From the IMG/VR virus record IMGVR_UViG_3300001505_000001: a DNA stretch of 64,000 nucleotides; one strand, given 5' to 3'. The notes under the pieces were generated by a model. The model was not told the DNA's origin and searched no databases. It saw nothing but the letters and a program-made list of their open reading frames with translations. The stretch is from a virus. A program made the translations under genes and the position numbers. This document shows, one piece after another, positions 12,349 through 24,154 of the stretch (positions are counted from its first letter, which is position 1; the number at the start of each line of letters is the position of its first letter).

Positions 12349-12777
12349 ATGGATTTTAAACAAGTTTTTTTATATGATGGAACACCATATTTAGCATTTC
12401 GTGGCTCCGATGGGGAATATGATTATCCTAATGACGAGTGGACAGAAACTCCACCACCAGAAGGATTATATGAGCCTATATATTTTAATGGGAATGAGTG
12501 GAAAGGTGCAAGTAAAGAAGAATGGGAAAAGTCTATACAAAAGAAGAAGGAAGAAGAGTTATCTAAACTTCCACCGTATGAACCAACACCTATAGAACGT
12601 TTAGCTGCAACGTCACAGTTACAAACTGCTAAAACAGCAAGAAGACTACAGACATTAGAACAGACACAAGCAAAAAGTTTAGTCAACGATGCCGAAAAAG
12701 ACAGAAAGATAAAAGTTTTAGAAGAGCAAGTGGCTAAATTGATGCTTGAATTAACTAAAAAAGGAAGTGTTGAATAA
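12349..12777 (+). CDS. Hypothetical structural or assembly protein
   Basis: ATG at 12349 with RBS AAGGAGG; the track ORF 12268 start lies inside the upstream gene. 142 aa, coiled-coil C-terminus. Confidence 0.35.
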   Translation: MDFKQVFLYDGTPYLAFRGSDGEYDYPNDEWTETPPPEGLYEPIYFNGNEWKGASKEEWEKSIQKKKEEELSKLPPYEPTPIERLAATSQLQTAKTARRLQTLEQTQAKSLVNDAEKDRKIKVLEEQVAKLMLELTKKGSVE

Positions 12778-12929
12778 TGTATCCAGGTTTTGACGCTATT
12801 AAATATTTTTATGATATTAATTGCTATACTAATGAAGATATTCAAACATATGTAGAATTAGGTTGTATTAATAAAGAAGAATATAAAAAAATCACTAAAG
12901 AAGACTATCCAGAAGACACTGAATTATAG
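12777..12929 (+). CDS. XkdX-family small protein
   Basis: 50-aa ORF not in the track (under 60 aa), ATG overlapping the upstream stop. MYPGFDAIKYFYDINCYTNEDIQTYVELGCINKEEYKKITKEDY matches the PBSX XkdX pattern (..YYD.G.WT.E.V...V.KG.IT.EEYKEITGEEY). Confidence 0.5.
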   Translation: MYPGFDAIKYFYDINCYTNEDIQTYVELGCINKEEYKKITKEDYPEDTEL

Positions 12930-12940
12930 TAGGTGTTATT

Positions 12941-13144
12941 ATGATAATTAAATTAAAAGATAATAAAAATTTATCTGATTTAGACGCTACTATTTATATA
13001 ATTATAAATGGTGGCGTTTTTAAATATAGAACTTTTGTTCATAATGATAATGTGATTTTTATTGAAAAATATTTCGACAATATATATAAATTATATATAG
13101 ATACGAAAGAATTTAACGTAGAAAATATAGAAATAGGAGAGTAA
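12941..13144 (+). CDS. Hypothetical small protein
   Basis: 67-aa ORF, AT-rich, weak RBS (GTAGG); between XkdX-like and the fiber gene. Confidence 0.3.
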   Translation: MIIKLKDNKNLSDLDATIYIIINGGVFKYRTFVHNDNVIFIEKYFDNIYKLYIDTKEFNVENIEIGE

Positions 13145-18560: not shown

Positions 18561-19556
18561 ATGGAGGTTATTATAATGGAAAGAAACAATATTTATAGTG
18601 AAGAAATATATAAAAAAGTAAATGATGAATCAAAAGAGCTTTTAAATGATTATATATTAGAGTTAAAGGTTCGTAATCGAGCAGAAAAGACAATTACACA
18701 ATATGAATTTGATTGTAAAATGTTTATGTGTTATGTTTATGATAACATGAACAACAAATCATTACTTGATTTAAAACGCCGAGATTTTAGGAATTTCTTT
18801 TTATTCTTAAAAGAGAGTGGAAAATCAGCAGCAAGAATCAACCGTGTTCAATCTTCAATAAGAAATCTCTTACAGTTTGCCGAAGACGACGAAGAAATAT
18901 ACGAAGATTATGAAGTTAATCCTATGAGAAAAATTAAATCAGTTGAGAAAGAACCTGTTAGAGAGATTGTGTTCTTAACAGATGAACAAGTTACTTATTT
19001 AATTGATTATTTATTAGAGAAAGGTAAAACACAAAAAGCATTGTTTGTTAGTTTTGCTTATGATAGCGTAGCTCGTAGAAATGAAATATCACAAGTTCAA
19101 AAATATAGTTTCCAAGACACAACTAAATCAAGCACTAACGAAGTTGTGGGTAAACGTGGAAAGAGATTTAAGTTAATGTATTCTCAGCGTACTAAAGACC
19201 TTGCTAAAGAATGGCTGGCTGAACGTGGAGAAGATGATGTTGATAGCTTGTGGATAAGTTACTATAATGGTAAACCACGTGCTATTGTATATGACACATT
19301 TTATTCTTGGGCTATATCATTTAGAAGTATATTAGAAGAAAAATACGATGTAGATTTACCATTAAATGCTCACTCGTTCCGTCATAGTGGAGCTGAGAAT
19401 TATGAAAATGGTACACATAGCTCATTACAATTTATGGGTAAAGATAGCTTAAACATAAACGAACTAAAAATATTAATGAATCATGAAAGTATTGATATTA
19501 CTAATAGTTATTTAAGAAATAAAGACCAAGAAATATTGGAAAATTTATTCTCATAA
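18561..19556 (+). CDS. Tyrosine recombinase / phage integrase family protein
   Basis: RBS AGGGGG. C-terminal catalytic motifs LNAHSFRHSGAENYENG (HxxR) and NSYLRN (Tyr); N-terminal SAM-like domain. Confidence 0.7.
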   Translation: MEVIIMERNNIYSEEIYKKVNDESKELLNDYILELKVRNRAEKTITQYEFDCKMFMCYVYDNMNNKSLLDLKRRDFRNFFLFLKESGKSAARINRVQSSIRNLLQFAEDDEEIYEDYEVNPMRKIKSVEKEPVREIVFLTDEQVTYLIDYLLEKGKTQKALFVSFAYDSVARRNEISQVQKYSFQDTTKSSTNEVVGKRGKRFKLMYSQRTKDLAKEWLAERGEDDVDSLWISYYNGKPRAIVYDTFYSWAISFRSILEEKYDVDLPLNAHSFRHSGAENYENGTHSSLQFMGKDSLNINELKILMNHESIDITNSYLRNKDQEILENLFS

Positions 19557-19557
19557 A

Positions 19558-19590
19558 AAACAAGACTACTGTAACAGTAGTCTTTATACA
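19558..19590. terminator. Bidirectional rho-independent terminator at the point of convergent transcription
   Basis: aaaaaacaagactactgt-aa-cagtagtctttatacat: 10-bp perfect stem with A-run on one side and T-rich tail on the other. It sits between the + recombinase gene and the - gene ending at 19593. Confidence 0.55.
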
Positions 19591-19592
19591 TA

Positions 19593-19913
19593 TTATTCTA
19601 GTTCTAAATAGGAGCCTATTATTTTAATATCTTTTGAATCGAAGTTAGCTAGACTTTCAACAATATTAGCATTCAATCCTCTAATATTAGCTACACCATC
19701 TATAATTTCATCAACGTAGAACATAAGACCATCAATTTCTAACATATCAAATGTAAATATATTATTATTATTCTTGTCCACTTTTCCTACTGTTACACAT
19801 GTAGTACAATGAATATTGTGATGTAGTCTACCAAAATTCCATTTATCATCATCAATAAGTTCTGCATTGTGATACATTATTTTATTAGCATTATCCCAAA
19901 TTTTAAATTCCAT
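19593..19913 (-). CDS. YopX-like phage protein
   Basis: N-terminus MEFKIWDNANKIMYH matches the YopX family start (M.EIKFRAWDK..KKMIY). Confidence 0.4.
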   Translation of the reverse strand: MEFKIWDNANKIMYHNAELIDDDKWNFGRLHHNIHCTTCVTVGKVDKNNNNIFTFDMLEIDGLMFYVDEIIDGVANIRGLNANIVESLANFDSKDIKIIGSYLELE

Positions 19914-20144
19914 TCATTCATCAACCTTTTCTAATTTTACTTTAGATAATACAGAATAATCTACTTCTCCTAGTTCAACTAAATCTAATAACATTTCGTC
20001 ATAAGATACATTGTTCATTATATATGAATACCTTTTAGCAATGAATTTTCTTAGTTGTTGAATAAATGTGTTAAATGACACTCTTCTATTTATTTGGTGG
20101 TGCAATTGAGCAAACCACTCTTTACTAGTTATTTGTTGCTCCAT
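19914..20144 (-). CDS. Hypothetical protein
   Basis: 76-aa ORF tightly packed with its neighbours. Confidence 0.35.
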   Translation of the reverse strand: MEQQITSKEWFAQLHHQINRRVSFNTFIQQLRKFIAKRYSYIMNNVSYDEMLLDLVELGEVDYSVLSKVKLEKVDE

Positions 20145-20428
20145 ACATCCTCCTTAAGTGAATAGTAGTCTTCTGATATATTGTTTAAAATATATTCTTT
20201 GATTAAATTATATTTTAAATTTTGATAACTATACCATCTTTCTAACATATCATAAGGGAAATAGATATAGTGTTTTTGTTTTGTTATCATATTGGTAATT
20301 TCAGCTTCTACCATATCTGGTAAATTATTATCTATTTCAGTTACTTTAAAATACTCAAAAGTCATTCTCTTTAGAATATTAGTGATTCTCTCTTTTATCA
20401 TTAATAAATTCCTCCGGATAACTTGCAA
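20129..20428 (-). CDS. Hypothetical protein
   Basis: 99-aa ORF, operon packing. Confidence 0.35.
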   Translation of the reverse strand: MQVIRRNLLMIKERITNILKRMTFEYFKVTEIDNNLPDMVEAEITNMITKQKHYIYFPYDMLERWYSYQNLKYNLIKEYILNNISEDYYSLKEDVWSNK

Positions 20429-20633
20429 TTGTTTTTACTGATGTTTCATATGGCGCTTTTAATGATAATGTTACTTGCGCTCCTAAAAATTCTTTATTTA
20501 AACTAGTGTAATGAGATTTAACATTTACATTTAACACTTTATATCGTGGATAATTTTCAACAAACTCATTTAATCTATCGTTTAATTCTAAAATATCATT
20601 ACCATATATTTCATCAATAATTATTTTTTCCAT
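20379..20633 (-). CDS. Hypothetical protein
   Basis: 84-aa ORF; the real start may be further downstream to avoid the overlap. Confidence 0.3.
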   Translation of the reverse strand: MEKIIIDEIYGNDILELNDRLNEFVENYPRYKVLNVNVKSHYTSLNKEFLGAQVTLSLKAPYETSVKTIASYPEEFINDKRENH

Positions 20634-20902: not shown

Positions 20903-21436
20903 TCATTCTCCTTTTATCTCATTACACATATATTGTAACATATCTTGACTGTCTGCGTCAAGTACAATATCAGCAAAATATGGAGCCGAAACAAATAAAT
21001 CTCTGTCAACTGATAATCTTCTATTTACTTCATCAATAGAATCTCCACGTTCTTTTGCTCTCTGTCTGATTAAATCTTCAGAAGCATTTATATAAACGGA
21101 GGTTACTAAACTCCCAAACTCATCTTTAATAGCTCTAAGACCTTCTGGGTCAGTTATAACTATTTTTTCTTGTATTGGAATTAAATCTTCTTTTTTCATT
21201 GCATAAATAAATGGTTCTTCTCTGTATTTAGTATAAAAATATCTATGTCCAAAGTATTGTGGATTTTCTAATTCTTTTGTTGAAACAAAATGATAATCTT
21301 TGCCATTAATTTCTCCATCTCTCATAGGTCTGTTGGTATATGTTGTTACTTGCTCAATTCCTGTAGATGTTACCAAATCTTTTACTAAAGTTGTTTTCCC
21401 ACTAAGTGTTTGTCCAACTATTGCATATATTTTCAT
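20903..21436 (-). CDS. Guanylate kinase-like nucleoside monophosphate kinase
   Basis: P-loop GQTLSGKTT and TTYTNRPMRDGEINGKDYHFVSTKELE (the GMK TTRxPRxGExxGxDYxFVS motif). Confidence 0.55.
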   Translation of the reverse strand: MKIYAIVGQTLSGKTTLVKDLVTSTGIEQVTTYTNRPMRDGEINGKDYHFVSTKELENPQYFGHRYFYTKYREEPFIYAMKKEDLIPIQEKIVITDPEGLRAIKDEFGSLVTSVYINASEDLIRQRAKERGDSIDEVNRRLSVDRDLFVSAPYFADIVLDADSQDMLQYMCNEIKGE

Positions 21437-21459: not shown

Positions 21460-21489
21460 ATTATATAATAAAAAGAAAAGTCCTGTCAA
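21460..21489 (-). promoter_or_regulatory. Sigma-A-type promoter (TTGACA-18-TATAAT) for the guanylate-kinase-like operon
   Basis: Minus strand reads TTGACAggacttttctttttattaTATAAT. Confidence 0.5.
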
Positions 21490-21494
21490 GGACT
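21479..21494 (-). terminator. Terminator hairpin after the Pnkp gene; its loop carries the -35 of the next promoter
   Basis: agtcc-tgtcaa-ggact; on the minus strand it is followed by ttttctttttatt. Confidence 0.45.
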
Positions 21495-23793
21495 AATCTT
21501 GTGTTTCTTTGTAATAATCATTTCTTAAAGTAATAATGTCATTCTCTAAACATTCTTTATCTTGTTGTTTCGCCCAATAGTAGAAATTAGTAAGCGTTTT
21601 GTCTTTTTGTAAAATCGCTTGAATAGGTCTTCTCTGTAAATTGCCTTTTGATAATGATTCTACTAAGCTACGCATATATTTCCAGTTATTATAATATGGT
21701 GTTTTATATTTTAACATAAAGCCACTATTATCCTCAAACACAAACCCCTCTATTGCAATTGAGCTGTCTCTTTCCAAATCTTTATAGAAATTAAACAAAT
21801 CATTCCAATTAGAGAAAGAAAAATGAGGTGTAGATATATTTTTATCAATACCAATAATATTTACTGCAACGTAAACAAGAGTTTCATTAAATAATTTGTT
21901 GAATTTAAGAGTATTATCAATAGCGTCTAATAAAACCACTCTTCTTTTACCTGCCTCATAGATAATATGTGGGTCATTAATGTTGTCTATTACCTCAAAC
22001 AGCAGTGTTCTATTCATGTCTTTTAAATACTCTTTTGCAGATTCAATTTGCTCATTATTCCATGTTTCTTCAACAATTTCTTTAAATAATAAAGCAAAAT
22101 CATTATCATATTGTGATAAATGAGTTCTTGATTTACTAGCATAAATTAACTTATCTCGATTACTATCATAAAACATTAATCCTAAGAATCCATTATATTT
22201 TAATGAAGCAGTAACTGGGAATTTTAAAGTGTCGGGCAAATTCTCTAAATTGGTCTCGGGTCTTTCATTAATATTGAAAAATTTATTATAACCTCTGCCA
22301 ACAATTTCATTCGTGCTTTCATCAATAAACAATCCTCTAGCAGTAACAGATAATTGATTCCAATGTTTTCTTTTAAATGCTCTTTTAGTGAAGTTCACAG
22401 ATACTACATTATCATATTGTGGAACTACTTTAATATATTTATCTTCTTTTGCAAGTCTTAAATACTCTTCAACTGTTAAATTGGTGTCAATATCTTTTGT
22501 ATAATCATTATTTAATAGAAATTTGGAATTAAATATTTCATTTTTAATTTCGTGTGGCGTTAAAGTATTATCACTATTAATTGTAACAGCTCTTAAGGAA
22601 CCACCTTTTTCAACTCTGCCTTCTAAATTGATAGATTGTTTTGTTATATTTAATGGTTCTCTATAAAGATTTCTGTGTCCATGAATTTGTATAGTGTCTG
22701 AATTTTCCCATTGTTCATCAATTTGATATTCATATCCACCTACGCCATTAATAATTTGATGTGTAGATACTAAATTAATATCATCTAACATATTAGGCAA
22801 AATACCACCATGATTAATCATATAGTATTGACCTTTGTAATTAAAGTATAACATTTGTTGTAAACTATGAACGATACGTCTTACTCTTTTTTGACTAACA
22901 CCATAATTCAAAAATTCTTTAAGAGTAGGAACAAACCCTCTAGCATGAAACAATTCTATTGCAGTATCAAAAAATGTTTCATTTGTAGTATTTGAATCGT
23001 CTAATGCGTTATTTAATTTTAGATATTTATCTTCATCTAAAAAAGCGTATCTTCTTAAATGTTTTTCATGATTACCTTCCAACAATACTACATTAGGTTG
23101 TTTGTAAATTAGTTCTAAATAGTCAAACATCTCTTTGGTTTCTAAACCTCTATCAAAGTAATCTCCAACAAAAATAAATAGTTCATTTGGATTATCAATA
23201 ATTTTTTGGTAACTTGCAAATTGATTAATTGCTGTAAAGCATGAGTGAATATCTCCAATAACATGTATTTTATCATAATTGTCGGTATCAAGGAAGTCTT
23301 TATCCCATTTAATCTCATTCATTAATTTATTTGGTTTAATTTCTGTAGCATAACTAGGGATATGTTCATGCTGTAATCTTTCATAAATATTATAAATTAC
23401 TTCTTCTGGAACTTTCTTTAACTCTTCTCTTTGGTTATTGCGTTCAATTAATGTGTCTAAATCTTGTTCAACAGTTACTACATAAGTACGATAACGATAT
23501 TTACGTGCTAATGTTTCATATTTTTTAATTAATTTTCCTGTAGAATGTGTAGCGTCAATAACAGTAAAATCCCCATTAATCATCCTTTCTTCAAGAATTT
23601 CCATTAGATTATCCCAAACTTGATTATCGTGTTTTTGTGAGATAACTCTCATTCCTTGTTCATTATACACAGGGCTTGTGTGCATTTGTCTAAGTTCATC
23701 TGGAGATATTGTGTATGGCTCTAAACCATTCTCCTTAATAAAAGTAGACTTACCAGCCCCTGGTACGCCTCTCATTAATACTAATTGTTTCAT
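21493..23793 (-). CDS. Pnkp-like polynucleotide kinase-phosphatase (RNA/DNA end-healing enzyme) with a C-terminal nucleotidyltransferase/ligase-like region
   Basis: Start moved to ATG at 23793 (RBS AAAGGAG); the track start 23829 lacks an RBS. P-loop GVPGAGKST. Calcineurin-type metallophosphatase motifs GDIHS, GDYFDRG and GNHE. C-terminal region with a KYNG lysine motif like the Pnkp ligase motif I. Domain order kinase-phosphatase-ligase as in bacterial Pnkp. Confidence 0.6.
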   Translation of the reverse strand: MKQLVLMRGVPGAGKSTFIKENGLEPYTISPDELRQMHTSPVYNEQGMRVISQKHDNQVWDNLMEILEERMINGDFTVIDATHSTGKLIKKYETLARKYRYRTYVVTVEQDLDTLIERNNQREELKKVPEEVIYNIYERLQHEHIPSYATEIKPNKLMNEIKWDKDFLDTDNYDKIHVIGDIHSCFTAINQFASYQKIIDNPNELFIFVGDYFDRGLETKEMFDYLELIYKQPNVVLLEGNHEKHLRRYAFLDEDKYLKLNNALDDSNTTNETFFDTAIELFHARGFVPTLKEFLNYGVSQKRVRRIVHSLQQMLYFNYKGQYYMINHGGILPNMLDDINLVSTHQIINGVGGYEYQIDEQWENSDTIQIHGHRNLYREPLNITKQSINLEGRVEKGGSLRAVTINSDNTLTPHEIKNEIFNSKFLLNNDYTKDIDTNLTVEEYLRLAKEDKYIKVVPQYDNVVSVNFTKRAFKRKHWNQLSVTARGLFIDESTNEIVGRGYNKFFNINERPETNLENLPDTLKFPVTASLKYNGFLGLMFYDSNRDKLIYASKSRTHLSQYDNDFALLFKEIVEETWNNEQIESAKEYLKDMNRTLLFEVIDNINDPHIIYEAGKRRVVLLDAIDNTLKFNKLFNETLVYVAVNIIGIDKNISTPHFSFSNWNDLFNFYKDLERDSSIAIEGFVFEDNSGFMLKYKTPYYNNWKYMRSLVESLSKGNLQRRPIQAILQKDKTLTNFYYWAKQQDKECLENDIITLRNDYYKETQD

Positions 23794-23806
23794 AATAATT
23801 TCTCCT

Positions 23807-24154
23807 TTATTTTTTAATGTATACATCATATTTAGTATCTAATTCTCTATAACCTGTTAGGAAATAGAGTTTACTTTTCTTTGATACTGTATATATTGTT
23901 TTCTTTACATAACTTTTATTACTCTCATGTACTTTCACATCAACAGAAGATACTGCTGCTGTCTCATTAAATTGTTCTGTTGAAATTACTGTGCTATTAC
24001 TTTCTCTTAAAGCTACTGCTTTAGGTAAATATAAAATGAGTATTAATGTTATAAAACCTACAGTAGCTAAAATATAAAATAAATTATTAGACCTAGTTAT
24101 ACCTATATAAAATGATACCACTGTTAAAACTAAAATAATAAAATTAAAAACCAT
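23807..24154 (-). CDS. Small membrane protein
   Basis: N-terminal TM helices MVFNFIILVLTVVSFYIGI...ATVGFITLILILYL. Confidence 0.4.
   Translation of the reverse strand: MVFNFIILVLTVVSFYIGITRSNNLFYILATVGFITLILILYLPKAVALRESNSTVISTEQFNETAAVSSVDVKVHESNKSYVKKTIYTVSKKSKLYFLTGYRELDTKYDVYIKK

Follow-up and report, generated by a model that had tools for sequence, protein, structure and literature searches.

On the minus strand of a 64-kb stretch of Staphylococcus phage DNA (the window), the gene at 21493..23793 is predicted to encode a single chain of 766 residues that unites a P-loop 5'-kinase, which is intact, with a metallophosphoesterase of the binuclear kind and an RNA ligase that uses a covalent lysine. 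The protein brings together parts of two textbook systems, since its healing domains belong to the bacterial Pnkp type and its sealing domain resembles Trl1, the fungal tRNA-splicing ligase (Rnl6 type), and carries the C-terminal module characteristic of that group; the same holds for its family. The function that these assignments make probable is the autonomous heal-and-seal repair, by one polypeptide, of RNA, probably tRNA, that has been cut by host ribonucleases. The match to PHROG 8238 extends over the whole length of the protein (E = 0), and the family that this represents in Bacillota and their phages is large and catalogued but apparently uncharacterised.

The Gene and Its Start

The first-pass annotation described an open reading frame at 21493..23829 (minus strand, 778 aa), and precisely this frame was found, but of the range of lengths proposed for the protein, 766–778 aa, only the shorter stands. 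A Shine-Dalgarno sequence, AAGGAG, can be read at 23802..23807 (minus strand), where it overlaps the stop codon of an upstream membrane-protein ORF (23807-24154); because it precedes, by 8 nt, the ATG at 23793, the 778-aa form represents a false upstream start. Every homologue starts with the corresponding M(K/R)QLVL, and in Staphylococcus phage S-CoN_Ph10, which is 98.5% identical at the nucleotide level, the deposited start of CDS0083 ("RNA ligase") is the equivalent of the same ATG. The start at 23829 was therefore dropped on the basis of the AAGGAG spacing and the homologue N termini, and translation almost certainly begins at the ATG at 23793, for a product of 766 aa followed by the stop codon. 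Directly past the stop codon, a pattern scan placed a putative terminator-like hairpin and T-run at 21479..21494 (minus strand); the scan returned 3 such sites versus 0.7 expected.

Three Pfam domains match the protein far beyond chance, AAA_33 (1.9e-19), Metallophos (2.4e-15) and RNA_lig_T4_1 (3.3e-39), and all of the motifs quoted in the first-pass annotation are present, their coordinates in the window having been verified. As had been proposed, a kinase, a calcineurin-type phosphatase and a lysine-nucleotidyltransferase ligase follow one another in a single polypeptide in the N- to C-terminal order of bacterial Pnkp.

The Healing Domains

The N-terminal P-loop kinase is supported by sequence and structure comparisons. 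The predicted 5'-OH polynucleotide kinase domain occupies approximately residues 1-165 (23299..23793, minus strand) and corresponds to AAA_33, with the P-loop GVPGAGKST (G9-T17) at 23743-23769; Lys15, Asp32, Arg35 and Arg122 are invariant in 119 homologues, and Ser/Thr16 is conserved. Sequence matches in the PDB include T4 Pnk (1ly1, 1e-5) and the kinase of Clostridium thermocellum Pnkp (CthPnkp; 4gp6, 5e-4), and the best Foldseek match is again the CthPnkp kinase (4gp7, TMt 0.73, 26% identity).

The central domain, approximately residues 175-430 (22504..23271, minus strand), likewise has the calcineurin/lambda-phosphatase fold that had been assigned to it, as indicated by the Metallophos and Foldseek matches and by the motifs GDIHS (23242-23256), GDYFDRG (23146-23166), GNHE (23065-23076), HGG (22804-22812) and HGHR (22672-22683), all on the minus strand. 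The residues essential for the CthPnkp phosphatase are Asp187, His189, Asp233, Arg237, Asn263, His264, His323, His376 and Asp392 (PMC3675462). By motif, eight of these nine have near-invariant counterparts in Asp181, His183, Asp211, Arg215, Asn241, His242, His328 and His373, the equivalent of the ninth, Asp392, not being mappable with confidence. The closest structures by Foldseek are lambda phosphatase (1g5b, 9e-9) and the CthPnkp phosphatase (4j6o, 3.2e-8, with the best TMq among the phosphatases). This equality of lambda phosphatase with the CthPnkp enzyme as a fold match, the naming of several homologue records as "putative serine/threonine protein phosphatase" and a match to PHROG 246 ("NinI-like," 7e-22) would also accord with a protein Ser/Thr phosphatase of the NinI/lambda-phosphatase type, fused to its neighbors without forming a coherent RNA repair pathway, but the domain is flanked by a polynucleotide kinase-type domain and an RNA ligase across hundreds of clusters, which makes this explanation highly improbable. 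A role of the phosphatase in RNA end healing is preferred.

The kinase and phosphatase of CthPnkp are thus the closest solved homologues of the phage healing domains, the equivalent of His189 is kept, and the order of kinase, binuclear metallophosphoesterase and ligase is common to the two proteins. The first-pass annotation went further in assigning the whole bacterial Pnkp architecture to the phage protein; the types of kinase and phosphatase and their order agree with this, but the ligase is not of the Pnkp type. TIGR04075, the equivalog model for bacterial Pnkp, is the best NCBIfam match, but scores 69.9 bits versus a cutoff of 750 in an alignment limited to residues 13-263, and the C-terminal region does not have the Rnl4-type ligase module of bacterial Pnkp. 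We consequently regard it as extremely unlikely that the phage protein belongs to the Pnkp family, as the healing component of a Pnkp/Hen1 system with a Pnkp-type ligase-like adenylyltransferase working without Hen1, even though the domain order is identical and the kinase and phosphatase are nearest to the CthPnkp modules; for the ligase module this has already been refuted. The combination of Pnkp-type healing with a Trl1-like ligase remains the preferred description.

The reported lack of Hen1 holds in the contexts that could be surveyed. None is annotated in the entire 89-kb complete genome of the 98.5%-identical sister phage or within 8–10 kb of homologues in six other contexts, and Pfam found no methyltransferase domain in the large and mid-sized hypothetical ORFs of the sister genome, a scan that covered ORFs of about 150 aa and more. 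Nothing relevant to Hen1, Tpt1/KptA or 2H genes was present in the annotation of that genome or in the Pfam results for 19 poorly annotated ORFs and the downstream kinase. The distinction that had been drawn from the arrangement in T4 also proved correct: the T4 Pnkp phosphatase is an acylphosphatase of the HAD/DxDxT type, whereas that of the phage protein is a calcineurin-type metallophosphoesterase, and activities that are split between T4 Pnkp and Rnl1 are here fused.

The Ligase Domain and Its Relationship to Trl1

A nucleotidyltransferase fold is present in the predicted structure of the C-terminal region (pLDDT 94), so the observation that the first-pass annotation had named as contradicting it, the absence of such a fold, was not made. 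The adenylyltransferase module extends over approximately residues 441-698 (21700..22473, minus strand) and includes Arg486 and Lys504-Phe505, motif I (K532-Y-N-G, within LKYNGFLGL; 22189-22200), motif III (F599-E600), motif IV (E682-G-F-V, 21739-21750) and motif V (K695-Y-K697, 21703-21711), all on the minus strand. It is followed by an all-helical module of approximately residues 699-766 (21496..21699, minus strand) that is common to Trl1-LIG and ends in the motif IITLRNDYY. A distinctive C-terminal module of this kind defines the Rnl6 clade (PMC6379707), and the phage protein has both this module and the clade's adenylyltransferase, whose N sub-domain is Rnl1-like and in which motifs I (KxNG), III, IV and V are present.

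Profiles align with Trl1-LIG from end to end (E 5e-32 to 8e-21). In these alignments Arg486, Lys504, Phe505, Lys532-x-Asn534-Gly and Glu600 correspond to Arg99, Lys120, Phe121, Lys148/Asn150 and Glu218 of CthTrl1, and Glu682 and Lys695/Lys697 correspond to its motifs IV and V. The aligned adenylyltransferase residues are invariant in the 119 homologues, and position 534 is Asn in 140 of 145 of the more distant representatives. Identity to the fungal ligase domains of known structure (Chaetomium 6N0T/6N67/8RBJ and Candida glabrata 9QW7) is nevertheless only about 21%, and the adenine-stacking His241 of Trl1 is replaced by Leu (Leu622). The proteins also differ in domain order, which in Trl1 runs from the ligase through the kinase to a 2H cyclic phosphodiesterase but in the phage protein from the kinase through the metallophosphoesterase to the ligase, in their 3'-healing domains, which have unrelated folds, and in distribution: the Trl1 proteins compared are from fungi, whereas the present family is found in bacteria and phages, without a tRNA-splicing role for such a ligase.

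The adenylyltransferase core is also homologous to that of T4 Rnl1, but the alignments stop at T4 residue 249–252 of 374 and cover the C-domain of neither protein, and a structural superposition includes only 247 residues. Neither approach found a T4 Rnl1-type C-terminal tRNA-specificity domain in the phage protein. The C-terminal domain of T4 Rnl1 is of another kind, and the protein has neither a KxxR motif nor equivalents of Asn534 and His609.

Chemistry of the Ends to Be Joined

In Chaetomium Trl1, His227, Arg334 and Arg337 enforce a requirement for a 2'-PO4, which Asn150 contacts (PMC6379707, PMC11404444, PMC12440814). These residues align with His609 (in D607-P-H609-I, 21964-21975, minus strand), Lys705 and Arg708 (in K705-Y-M-R708 of the helical module, 21670-21681, minus strand) and Asn534, which do not vary among the 119 homologues and hardly vary among 146 more distant representatives. 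Within the triad, His609 and Arg708 are identical to their Trl1 counterparts, but the first Arg of Trl1 is replaced by Lys, and position 705 is Lys in 143 of the 146 representatives and Arg in 3, so that the charge is conserved and the residue is not. The near-invariance of the four residues includes the 39 short proteins (≤460 aa), mostly stand-alone ligases, that are among the 146. Two of the four positions are occupied by Asp and Ile in T4 Rnl1, in which no KxxR can be aligned.

The reaction of CthPnkp runs through a 2'-phosphomonoester, and the motif-I mutation H189D leads to a 2'-PO4 end product that can be sealed only by the yeast ligase (PMC1920235, PMC3675462). Gln occurs naturally at the motif-I His in one-third of the representatives with a phosphatase domain (33 of 98), for example in the GDxQG of a Paenibacillus alvei protein; the window protein has His (His183, in GDIHS), as does wild-type CthPnkp. 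By analogy, the family phosphatase should make 2'-OH ends. The end chemistries predicted from the two halves conflict, His183 of the phosphatase predicting 2'-OH ends while the ligase keeps the putative 2'-PO4 site of Trl1, and this counts against the proposed heal-and-seal function.

It is conceivable, although we consider it the less probable course, that ends of the yeast type are used, the phosphoesterase passing 3'-OH,2'-PO4 termini to the Trl1-like ligase, through a slow monoesterase step or capture of the intermediate by the ligase, and the junction keeping a 2'-PO4 that blocks re-cleavage by transesterifying RNases. Such a junction would be a one-protein analogue of the "repair with immunity" conferred by 2'-O-methylation by Hen1. 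The invariance of the four residues aligned with those of Trl1, the CthPnkp intermediate, the H189D product and the natural Gln all point in this direction. However, the window protein has the His of a 2'-OH producer; no Tpt1/KptA 2'-phosphotransferase, the enzyme type that in yeast (Tpt1) removes the junction 2'-PO4, was found in the phage genome or the neighborhoods examined; and there is no 2H cyclic phosphodiesterase fusion among the variant members examined. The triad, in which position 705 is in any case not Arg, is an imperfect predictor, because plant Trl1 requires a 2'-PO4 though it lacks both arginines and fungal LIG keeps some activity on 2'-OH ends.

An extension of this proposal, which we regard as doubtful, is that the family constitutes a prokaryotic and phage branch of Trl1 (Rnl6) in which the His-Lys-Arg pocket would seal 3'-OH,2'-PO4 ends. 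Phage repair would therefore leave a 2'-phosphate at the junction, the tRNA so marked would resist re-cleavage, and the family would become a candidate source, by descent or by transfer, of the eukaryotic tRNA-splicing ligase. If this were true, the Gln sub-clade would contain the clearest 2'-PO4 producers. Only fungal members of the Rnl6 clade are described in the literature searched, which contained no prokaryotic Rnl6.

Proposed Function and Biological Role

Heal-and-seal repair of RNA remains the function that we favor. No assayed family member was found in the literature searched, and we therefore infer all three activities from homology and the intact active sites. The N-terminal kinase would phosphorylate the 5'-OH, the central Mn2+-type binuclear phosphoesterase would open, and probably remove, a 2',3'-cyclic phosphate, and the C-terminal ATP-dependent ligase, adenylylated on Lys532, would transfer AMP to the 5'-PO4 and join it to the 3'-OH, with no need of a Hen1 partner. 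A biochemical precedent is the sealing by T4 Rnl1 of tRNA ends that have been healed by CthPnkp (PMC1920235). Less confidently, the role in the phage may be the reversal of damage by host RNases, with breaks in the anticodon loops of tRNA as the most plausible kind, comparable to the action of T4 Pnkp and Rnl1 against PrrC; T4 rnlA is annotated as working with PseT in repairing tRNA in restrictive prr hosts. The T4 restriction-repair system consists of two proteins, Pnkp (PseT) and Rnl1 (gene 63), as opposed to one chain. The baculovirus AcNPV enzyme reportedly described by Martins and Shuman in 2004 is, like the phage enzyme, a viral single chain with an Rnl1-like ligase, a 5'-kinase and a 3'-phosphatase, but its order is said to be ligase, kinase and HAD phosphatase, with a healing module of the T4 type.

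Because heal-and-seal repair is already known from T4 Pnkp/Rnl1, bacterial Pnkp/Hen1 and fungal Trl1, the gene opens no new category. The fusion of Pnkp-type healing with a Trl1-type ligase is undescribed in the literature searched, outside which lies Burroughs and Aravind 2016 (NAR 44:8525). If the analysis holds, bacteria and phages contain close structural relatives of the Trl1/Rnl6 architecture, which has been regarded as an antifungal target specific to fungi; these relatives bear on the origin of the ligase and on its specificity as a target, and the family, with its natural His-to-Gln switch, offers a natural experiment on the matching of 3'-end chemistry between healing and sealing modules. 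It would also predict an RNA-cleaving defense in staphylococci and other Bacillota that phages must reverse; a literature search found no staphylococcal tRNA-cleaving defense, which counts against the proposed role. The family includes Staphylococcus phages of the therapeutic type, and a compact single-chain enzyme that converts RNA>p/5'-OH breaks to intact RNA could serve as a reagent.

Conservation and Genomic Context

The PHROG 8238-type family comprises 511 representative clusters at E ≤ 1e-30. Catalytic residues of all three active sites are invariant or nearly so in the 119 full-length homologues (37–95% identity) and are kept, or nearly, in the 146 more distant representatives, and this joint conservation shows selection on the three activities together. 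The domains remain fused over hundreds of clusters, with 85 of the best 150 representatives being of tri-domain length, and the variants examined differ only by added inteins or homing endonucleases, C-terminal extensions or the loss of one healing domain. No 2H cyclic phosphodiesterase domain is present in the phage protein or in 20 variant architectures.

In some sister phage records the gene is interrupted by deletions of one base within A-runs, which could be sequencing errors or a sign of dispensability in culture. The split of "RNA ligase x2" in S-CoN_Ph8 was considered as a two-gene design but, being due to 1-nt deletions in A-runs, is not evidence for one.

In the phage genome, as in the contexts from Bacillus, Thermoactinomyces, Paenibacillus and metagenomic phages, the gene stands alone and is not accompanied by Hen1, and no recurrent RNA repair partner was found in neighborhoods from these three genera and two metagenomic phage contigs. 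An "RNA-binding protein" of the phage genome, considered as a Ro/TROVE repair partner, matches only DUF2828/DUF7788 and has no PDB match. There are no tRNA genes in the window, and the whole phage genome, as represented by the 98.5%-identical sister, has only one tRNA-Pro, which likewise counts against the proposed role. The surroundings are those of replication and nucleotide metabolism, with a DNA polymerase upstream and a guanylate kinase-like gene downstream, and CthPnkp phosphorylates 5'-OH termini of DNA as well as RNA (PMC1920235). These observations would fit a function in DNA or general phage nucleic acid metabolism, for example the healing of 3'-phosphate/5'-OH nicks during replication or after attack by host nucleases, which we consider improbable relative to a function in RNA repair. 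A guanylate kinase-like gene is 3' of the ligase gene in a Paenibacillus prophage as well as in the window.

Domain Architecture of the Predicted Repair Protein

The repair protein is a Pnkp-type healing module fused to a Trl1-type ligase, encoded without Hen1, and it belongs to a large family that has already been catalogued. Its gene occupies an uninterrupted ORF of 778 codons on the minus strand (window 21493-23829), in DNA with a G+C content of ~28%. The first-pass annotation had proposed a single protein of 766-778 aa; the single ORF stands, but the start that gives 778 aa does not, and from the sequence translation almost certainly begins at the second of the candidate starts, an ATG at 23793, to give 766 aa. 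This choice follows from an AAGGAG sequence 8 nt 5' of that ATG, from the N termini of the homologues, all of which begin at the equivalent of M(K/R)QLVL, and from the database record of the nearest relative, which is annotated with the same start. Residues are numbered here in the 766-aa form. The motifs noted previously, GVPGAGKST, GDIHS, GDYFDRG, GNHE, and LKYNGFLGL, are all present in the ORF, with their coordinates confirmed.

Pfam identifies AAA_33 (residues 16-147, E 1.9e-19), Metallophos (residues 187-389, E 2.4e-15), and RNA_lig_T4_1 (residues 497-713, E 3.3e-39, with the whole profile covered). PHROG 8238 (“RNA ligase,” 737 positions) matches the protein end to end (E = 0), so that, by sequence, a phage protein family with this complete architecture has already been catalogued. 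With TIGR04075, the equivalog model for bacterial Pnkp, the score is only 69.9 bits (cutoff, 750), and the alignment is confined to residues 13-263. By sequence, the kinase domain matches T4 polynucleotide kinase (1ly1, E 1e-5) and the kinase of C. thermocellum Pnkp (CthPnkp; 4gp6, E 5e-4). When residues 1-440 were modeled by AlphaFold (pLDDT 91.0) and searched with Foldseek, the top match was the CthPnkp kinase (4gp7, E 8.5e-9, 26% identity, TMt 0.73), with lambda phosphatase (1g5b, E 9e-9) and the CthPnkp phosphatase (4j6o, E 3.2e-8) also matched, the latter having the top query TM-score among phosphatases. Kinase residues Lys15, Ser/Thr16, Asp32, Arg35, and Arg122 and phosphatase residues Asp181, His183, Asp211, Arg215, Asn241, His242, His328, and His373 are conserved in 119 full-length homologues of 37-95% identity. 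By motif, these phosphatase residues correspond to eight of the nine residues that are essential in CthPnkp (PMC3675462); the ninth, Asp392, has no confidently mapped counterpart. As judged from sequence and model, the healing half is Pnkp-like, and the earlier assignment of a Pnkp-type kinase and phosphatase is upheld.

Relationship of the Ligase Domain to Trl1

The C-terminal region had also been attributed to the Pnkp lineage, and this attribution is not sustained. In a single-sequence search of the PDB with the C-terminal 326 residues, the ligase domains of fungal tRNA ligase (Trl1-LIG) were the only matches. A profile built from 15 sequences of the domain matches Trl1-LIG of Candida glabrata (E 4.7e-32) and Chaetomium (E 2.8e-22) in alignments that span the whole of Trl1-LIG, including the C-terminal helical module and a common terminal IIxLRN(D/E)F motif, whereas the match to T4 Rnl1 (E 6e-9) is limited to the adenylyltransferase core; Pnkp ligase chains are absent from the matches even at E ≤ 10. 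Structure prediction, which had been proposed as a check against Pnkp ligase and Rnl folds, gave a ligase fold as expected (pLDDT 94.1, pTM 0.90), but one nearest to Trl1-LIG and not to Pnkp. Foldseek places Trl1-LIG first (E ∼2e-15, TMq 0.71-0.77) and T4 Rnl1 second (∼3e-13, TMq 0.61), followed by Rnl3, Rnl2, and Rnl5. In a separate structure comparison, the scores were 28.7 for Trl1-LIG (6n0t, 307 residues superposed), 25.2 for T4 Rnl1 (9do4, 247 residues), 16.7-17.8 for Rnl3 exemplars (253-259 residues), 8.3 for Pnkp-C/Hen1-N (4drf, rank 25, 201 residues), and 6.5 for the Rnl of Pnkp1-Rnl-Hen1 (4xrp, 182 residues).

What defines an RNA ligase family is the set of domains added to the nucleotidyltransferase core; for the Rnl6 clade, the founding feature was the C-terminal module that distinguishes Trl1-LIG (PMC6379707). 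By that criterion, since the modeled domain shares this module, it would belong with Rnl6 or be its closest relative. In the literature searched (PMC6379707 among the sources), “Rnl6” refers to fungal enzymes only, apart from speculation on kinetoplastids. The catalytic set is complete and invariant (Arg486, Lys504-Phe505, Lys532, Asn534, Glu600, Glu682, and Lys695/Lys697); the KxNG-type lysine recognized in the first-pass annotation is Lys532, the motif I nucleophile, and is accompanied by the invariant Asn534.

Proposed Reaction and the 2' Position

The best-supported model, which draws on homology and on the conservation of the active sites, has a single chain carry out heal-and-seal repair autonomously: the kinase would make the 5'-PO4, the metallophosphoesterase would open a 2',3'-cyclic phosphate, and the ligase would join the ends via Lys532-AMP and AppRNA intermediates. 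Wild-type CthPnkp forms a 2'-phosphomonoester intermediate and then removes it, leaving 2'-OH ends that are sealed by T4 Rnl1, whereas the reaction of its H189D mutant stops at 3'-OH,2'-PO4 ends, which yeast tRNA ligase alone seals (PMC1920235, PMC3675462). The presence of His183, the counterpart of the CthPnkp histidine, predicts by analogy with the wild-type enzyme that the phage protein generates 2'-OH ends.

Yeast-type chemistry, in which 3'-OH,2'-PO4 ends are used, seems unlikely for this protein, yet several features of the family point to it. In Chaetomium Trl1, His227, Arg334, and Arg337 enforce the 2'-PO4 requirement and Asn150 contacts a phosphate mimic (PMC6379707, PMC11404444, PMC12440814); these residues align with His609, Lys705, Arg708, and Asn534, respectively, which are invariant in the 119 homologues and near-invariant in 146 more distant representatives, including short ligase-only proteins. 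T4 Rnl1, which does not carry out 2'-PO4 ligation, differs at two of the four positions, where it has Asp and Ile, and its alignment stops before the KxxR. Furthermore, one-third of the phosphatase-bearing representatives (33 of 98) have Gln at the His183 position (GDxQG), with the other active site residues intact; in CthPnkp, Asn or Gln in place of essential histidines left the phosphomonoesterase activities unrestored, the stated exception being His264 to Gln (PMC3675462). These features suggest that at least part of the family works with 2'-PO4 ends. A strict requirement is harder to accommodate: no 2'-phosphotransferase was found among the phage genome ORFs scanned or the neighborhoods examined, plant Trl1 needs the 2'-PO4 without having the arginines, fungal LIG keeps some activity on 2'-OH ends, and residue 705 is Lys rather than Arg. 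The phage enzyme would be of greater interest if its ligase turned out to use 2'-PO4 ends.

Hen1 and Partner Genes

The earlier view that the phage enzyme acts without Hen1 agrees with the searches conducted here. No methyltransferase is annotated in the complete genome of the sister phage S-CoN_Ph10, and Pfam detected none in those of its unannotated ORFs that are large or mid-sized. In Bacillus haynesii and Thermoactinomyces, the homologues are chromosomal genes that stand alone, and no Hen1, Tpt1/KptA, or other RNA repair neighbor is present within 8-10 kb in these two, in a Paenibacillus SPbeta-like prophage, or in two phage-sized metagenomic contigs. Pnkp/Hen1 depends on Hen1 because the Rnl4 ligase site stays blocked by an insertion for as long as the N-domain of Hen1 is not bound (PMC4411300). 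Unlike that ligase, Trl1/Rnl1-type ligases have no Hen1 dependence, and Hen1 is therefore not expected for the repair protein.

The B. haynesii homologue lies between ppiB-like and ypuD/rib-operon genes and adjoins a Rap family (RapH_N/TPR) gene and a small ORF, possibly a Phr partner. Because its 8-kb flanks contain no phage structural genes, the locus resembles a small inserted island more than a prophage.

Family Size and Variants

A word-index search gave 1957 matches at E ≤ 1e-5, with the three domains present in all 120 matches listed, and an exhaustive search with only the ligase domain as query gave 511 representative clusters at E ≤ 1e-30, a number that rose to 952 when the threshold was relaxed to E ≤ 1e-10. 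Of the 150 top-ranking representatives, 85 are of tri-domain length, 39 are of ≤460 aa and are mostly stand-alone ligases, and the remainder are variants. Twenty of the members of atypical length were checked and have the same domains, differing by an inserted intein or homing endonuclease, a C-terminal extension, a truncation, or the absence of one healing domain; no 2H phosphodiesterase, Tpt1, or Hen1 is present in any of the twenty. No assayed member of the family was found in the literature searched. In P0204 and P0242, a NUMOD-type homing endonuclease or intein lies within or just before the phosphatase domain. In phage S-CoN_Ph8, 1-nt deletions in A-runs at codons 301 and 751 break the gene up, and it is annotated as two “RNA ligase” CDSs; the cluster of the ligase-only product, P0017, contains 13 sequences. 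Such deletions in some sister phage records are probably sequencing or slippage artifacts, although they could reflect dispensability in culture; in S-CoN_Ph8, they are due either to an assembly error or to real inactivation.

Genomic Setting and Likely Biological Role

The gene has 98.5% DNA identity with CDS0083 (“RNA ligase”) of Staphylococcus phage S-CoN_Ph10, a Sextaecvirus siphovirus of 89 kb with coagulase-negative staphylococci as hosts, and is 84-94% identical to counterparts in other Sextaecvirus phages and Twort-like myoviruses. It lies within an extended run of genes on the same strand, made up of early, replication, and nucleotide metabolism genes. Its likely role, by analogy with T4 and with the phage RNA repair systems surveyed in the literature (PMC7824862), is to undo the damage that host RNases do to tRNA or other structured RNAs. 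No tRNA-cleaving defense in staphylococci is described in the literature searched, and the window has no tRNA genes. The ends left by HEPN RNases, among them Csm6, which serves S. epidermidis as a type III-A CRISPR effector, have suitable chemistry. Ligases use random breaks in transcripts poorly, however, unless RNA structure keeps the two ends together.

The gene is flanked by a small membrane protein ORF upstream and, directly 3', by a guanylate kinase-like ORF (window 20903-21436, minus strand; Pfam Guanylate_kin 2.6e-12), with another such ORF at 12421-12957 in locus L012. The two genes also occur side by side in sister phages and in a distantly related SPbeta-like prophage of Paenibacillus alvei and may be a conserved gene pair, nucleotide supply being one possibility. 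Just past the stop codon of the repair gene, the segment at window 21460-21494 (minus strand) contains a terminator-like hairpin, AGTCCTTGACAGGACT, with a T-run. The hairpin is overlapped by a 12/12 σ70 consensus promoter (TTGACA, 18 nt, TATAAT) that points at the guanylate kinase ORF and whose −35 hexamer falls within the hairpin.

Other Genes of the Phage

A 331-aa ORF (window 18561-19556, plus strand), “hypothetical” in the sister genome, has tyrosine recombinase/integrase domains (Phage_integrase 3.9e-10, Phage_int_SAM_1 2e-8) and is at the strand switch between the structural/lysis and early gene blocks. Outside the window, S-CoN_Ph10 encodes a 503-aa “RNA-binding protein” with DUF2828 and DUF7788 (80668-82179; 18969-20480 in record L003), which has no PDB match by sequence; its gene is ∼1.7 kb from the single tRNA-Pro gene of that genome, and it could be another RNA-handling factor. 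Many core genes of S-CoN_Ph10, much of whose genome corresponds to the window, are annotated as fragments beside HNH/homing endonucleases: the DnaB-like helicase is in three CDSs and the RNR small subunit in two, the terminase large subunit is split by a homing endonuclease, and the endolysin is split by an HNH gene, which suggests that introns, inteins, or mobile endonucleases are numerous in this genome.
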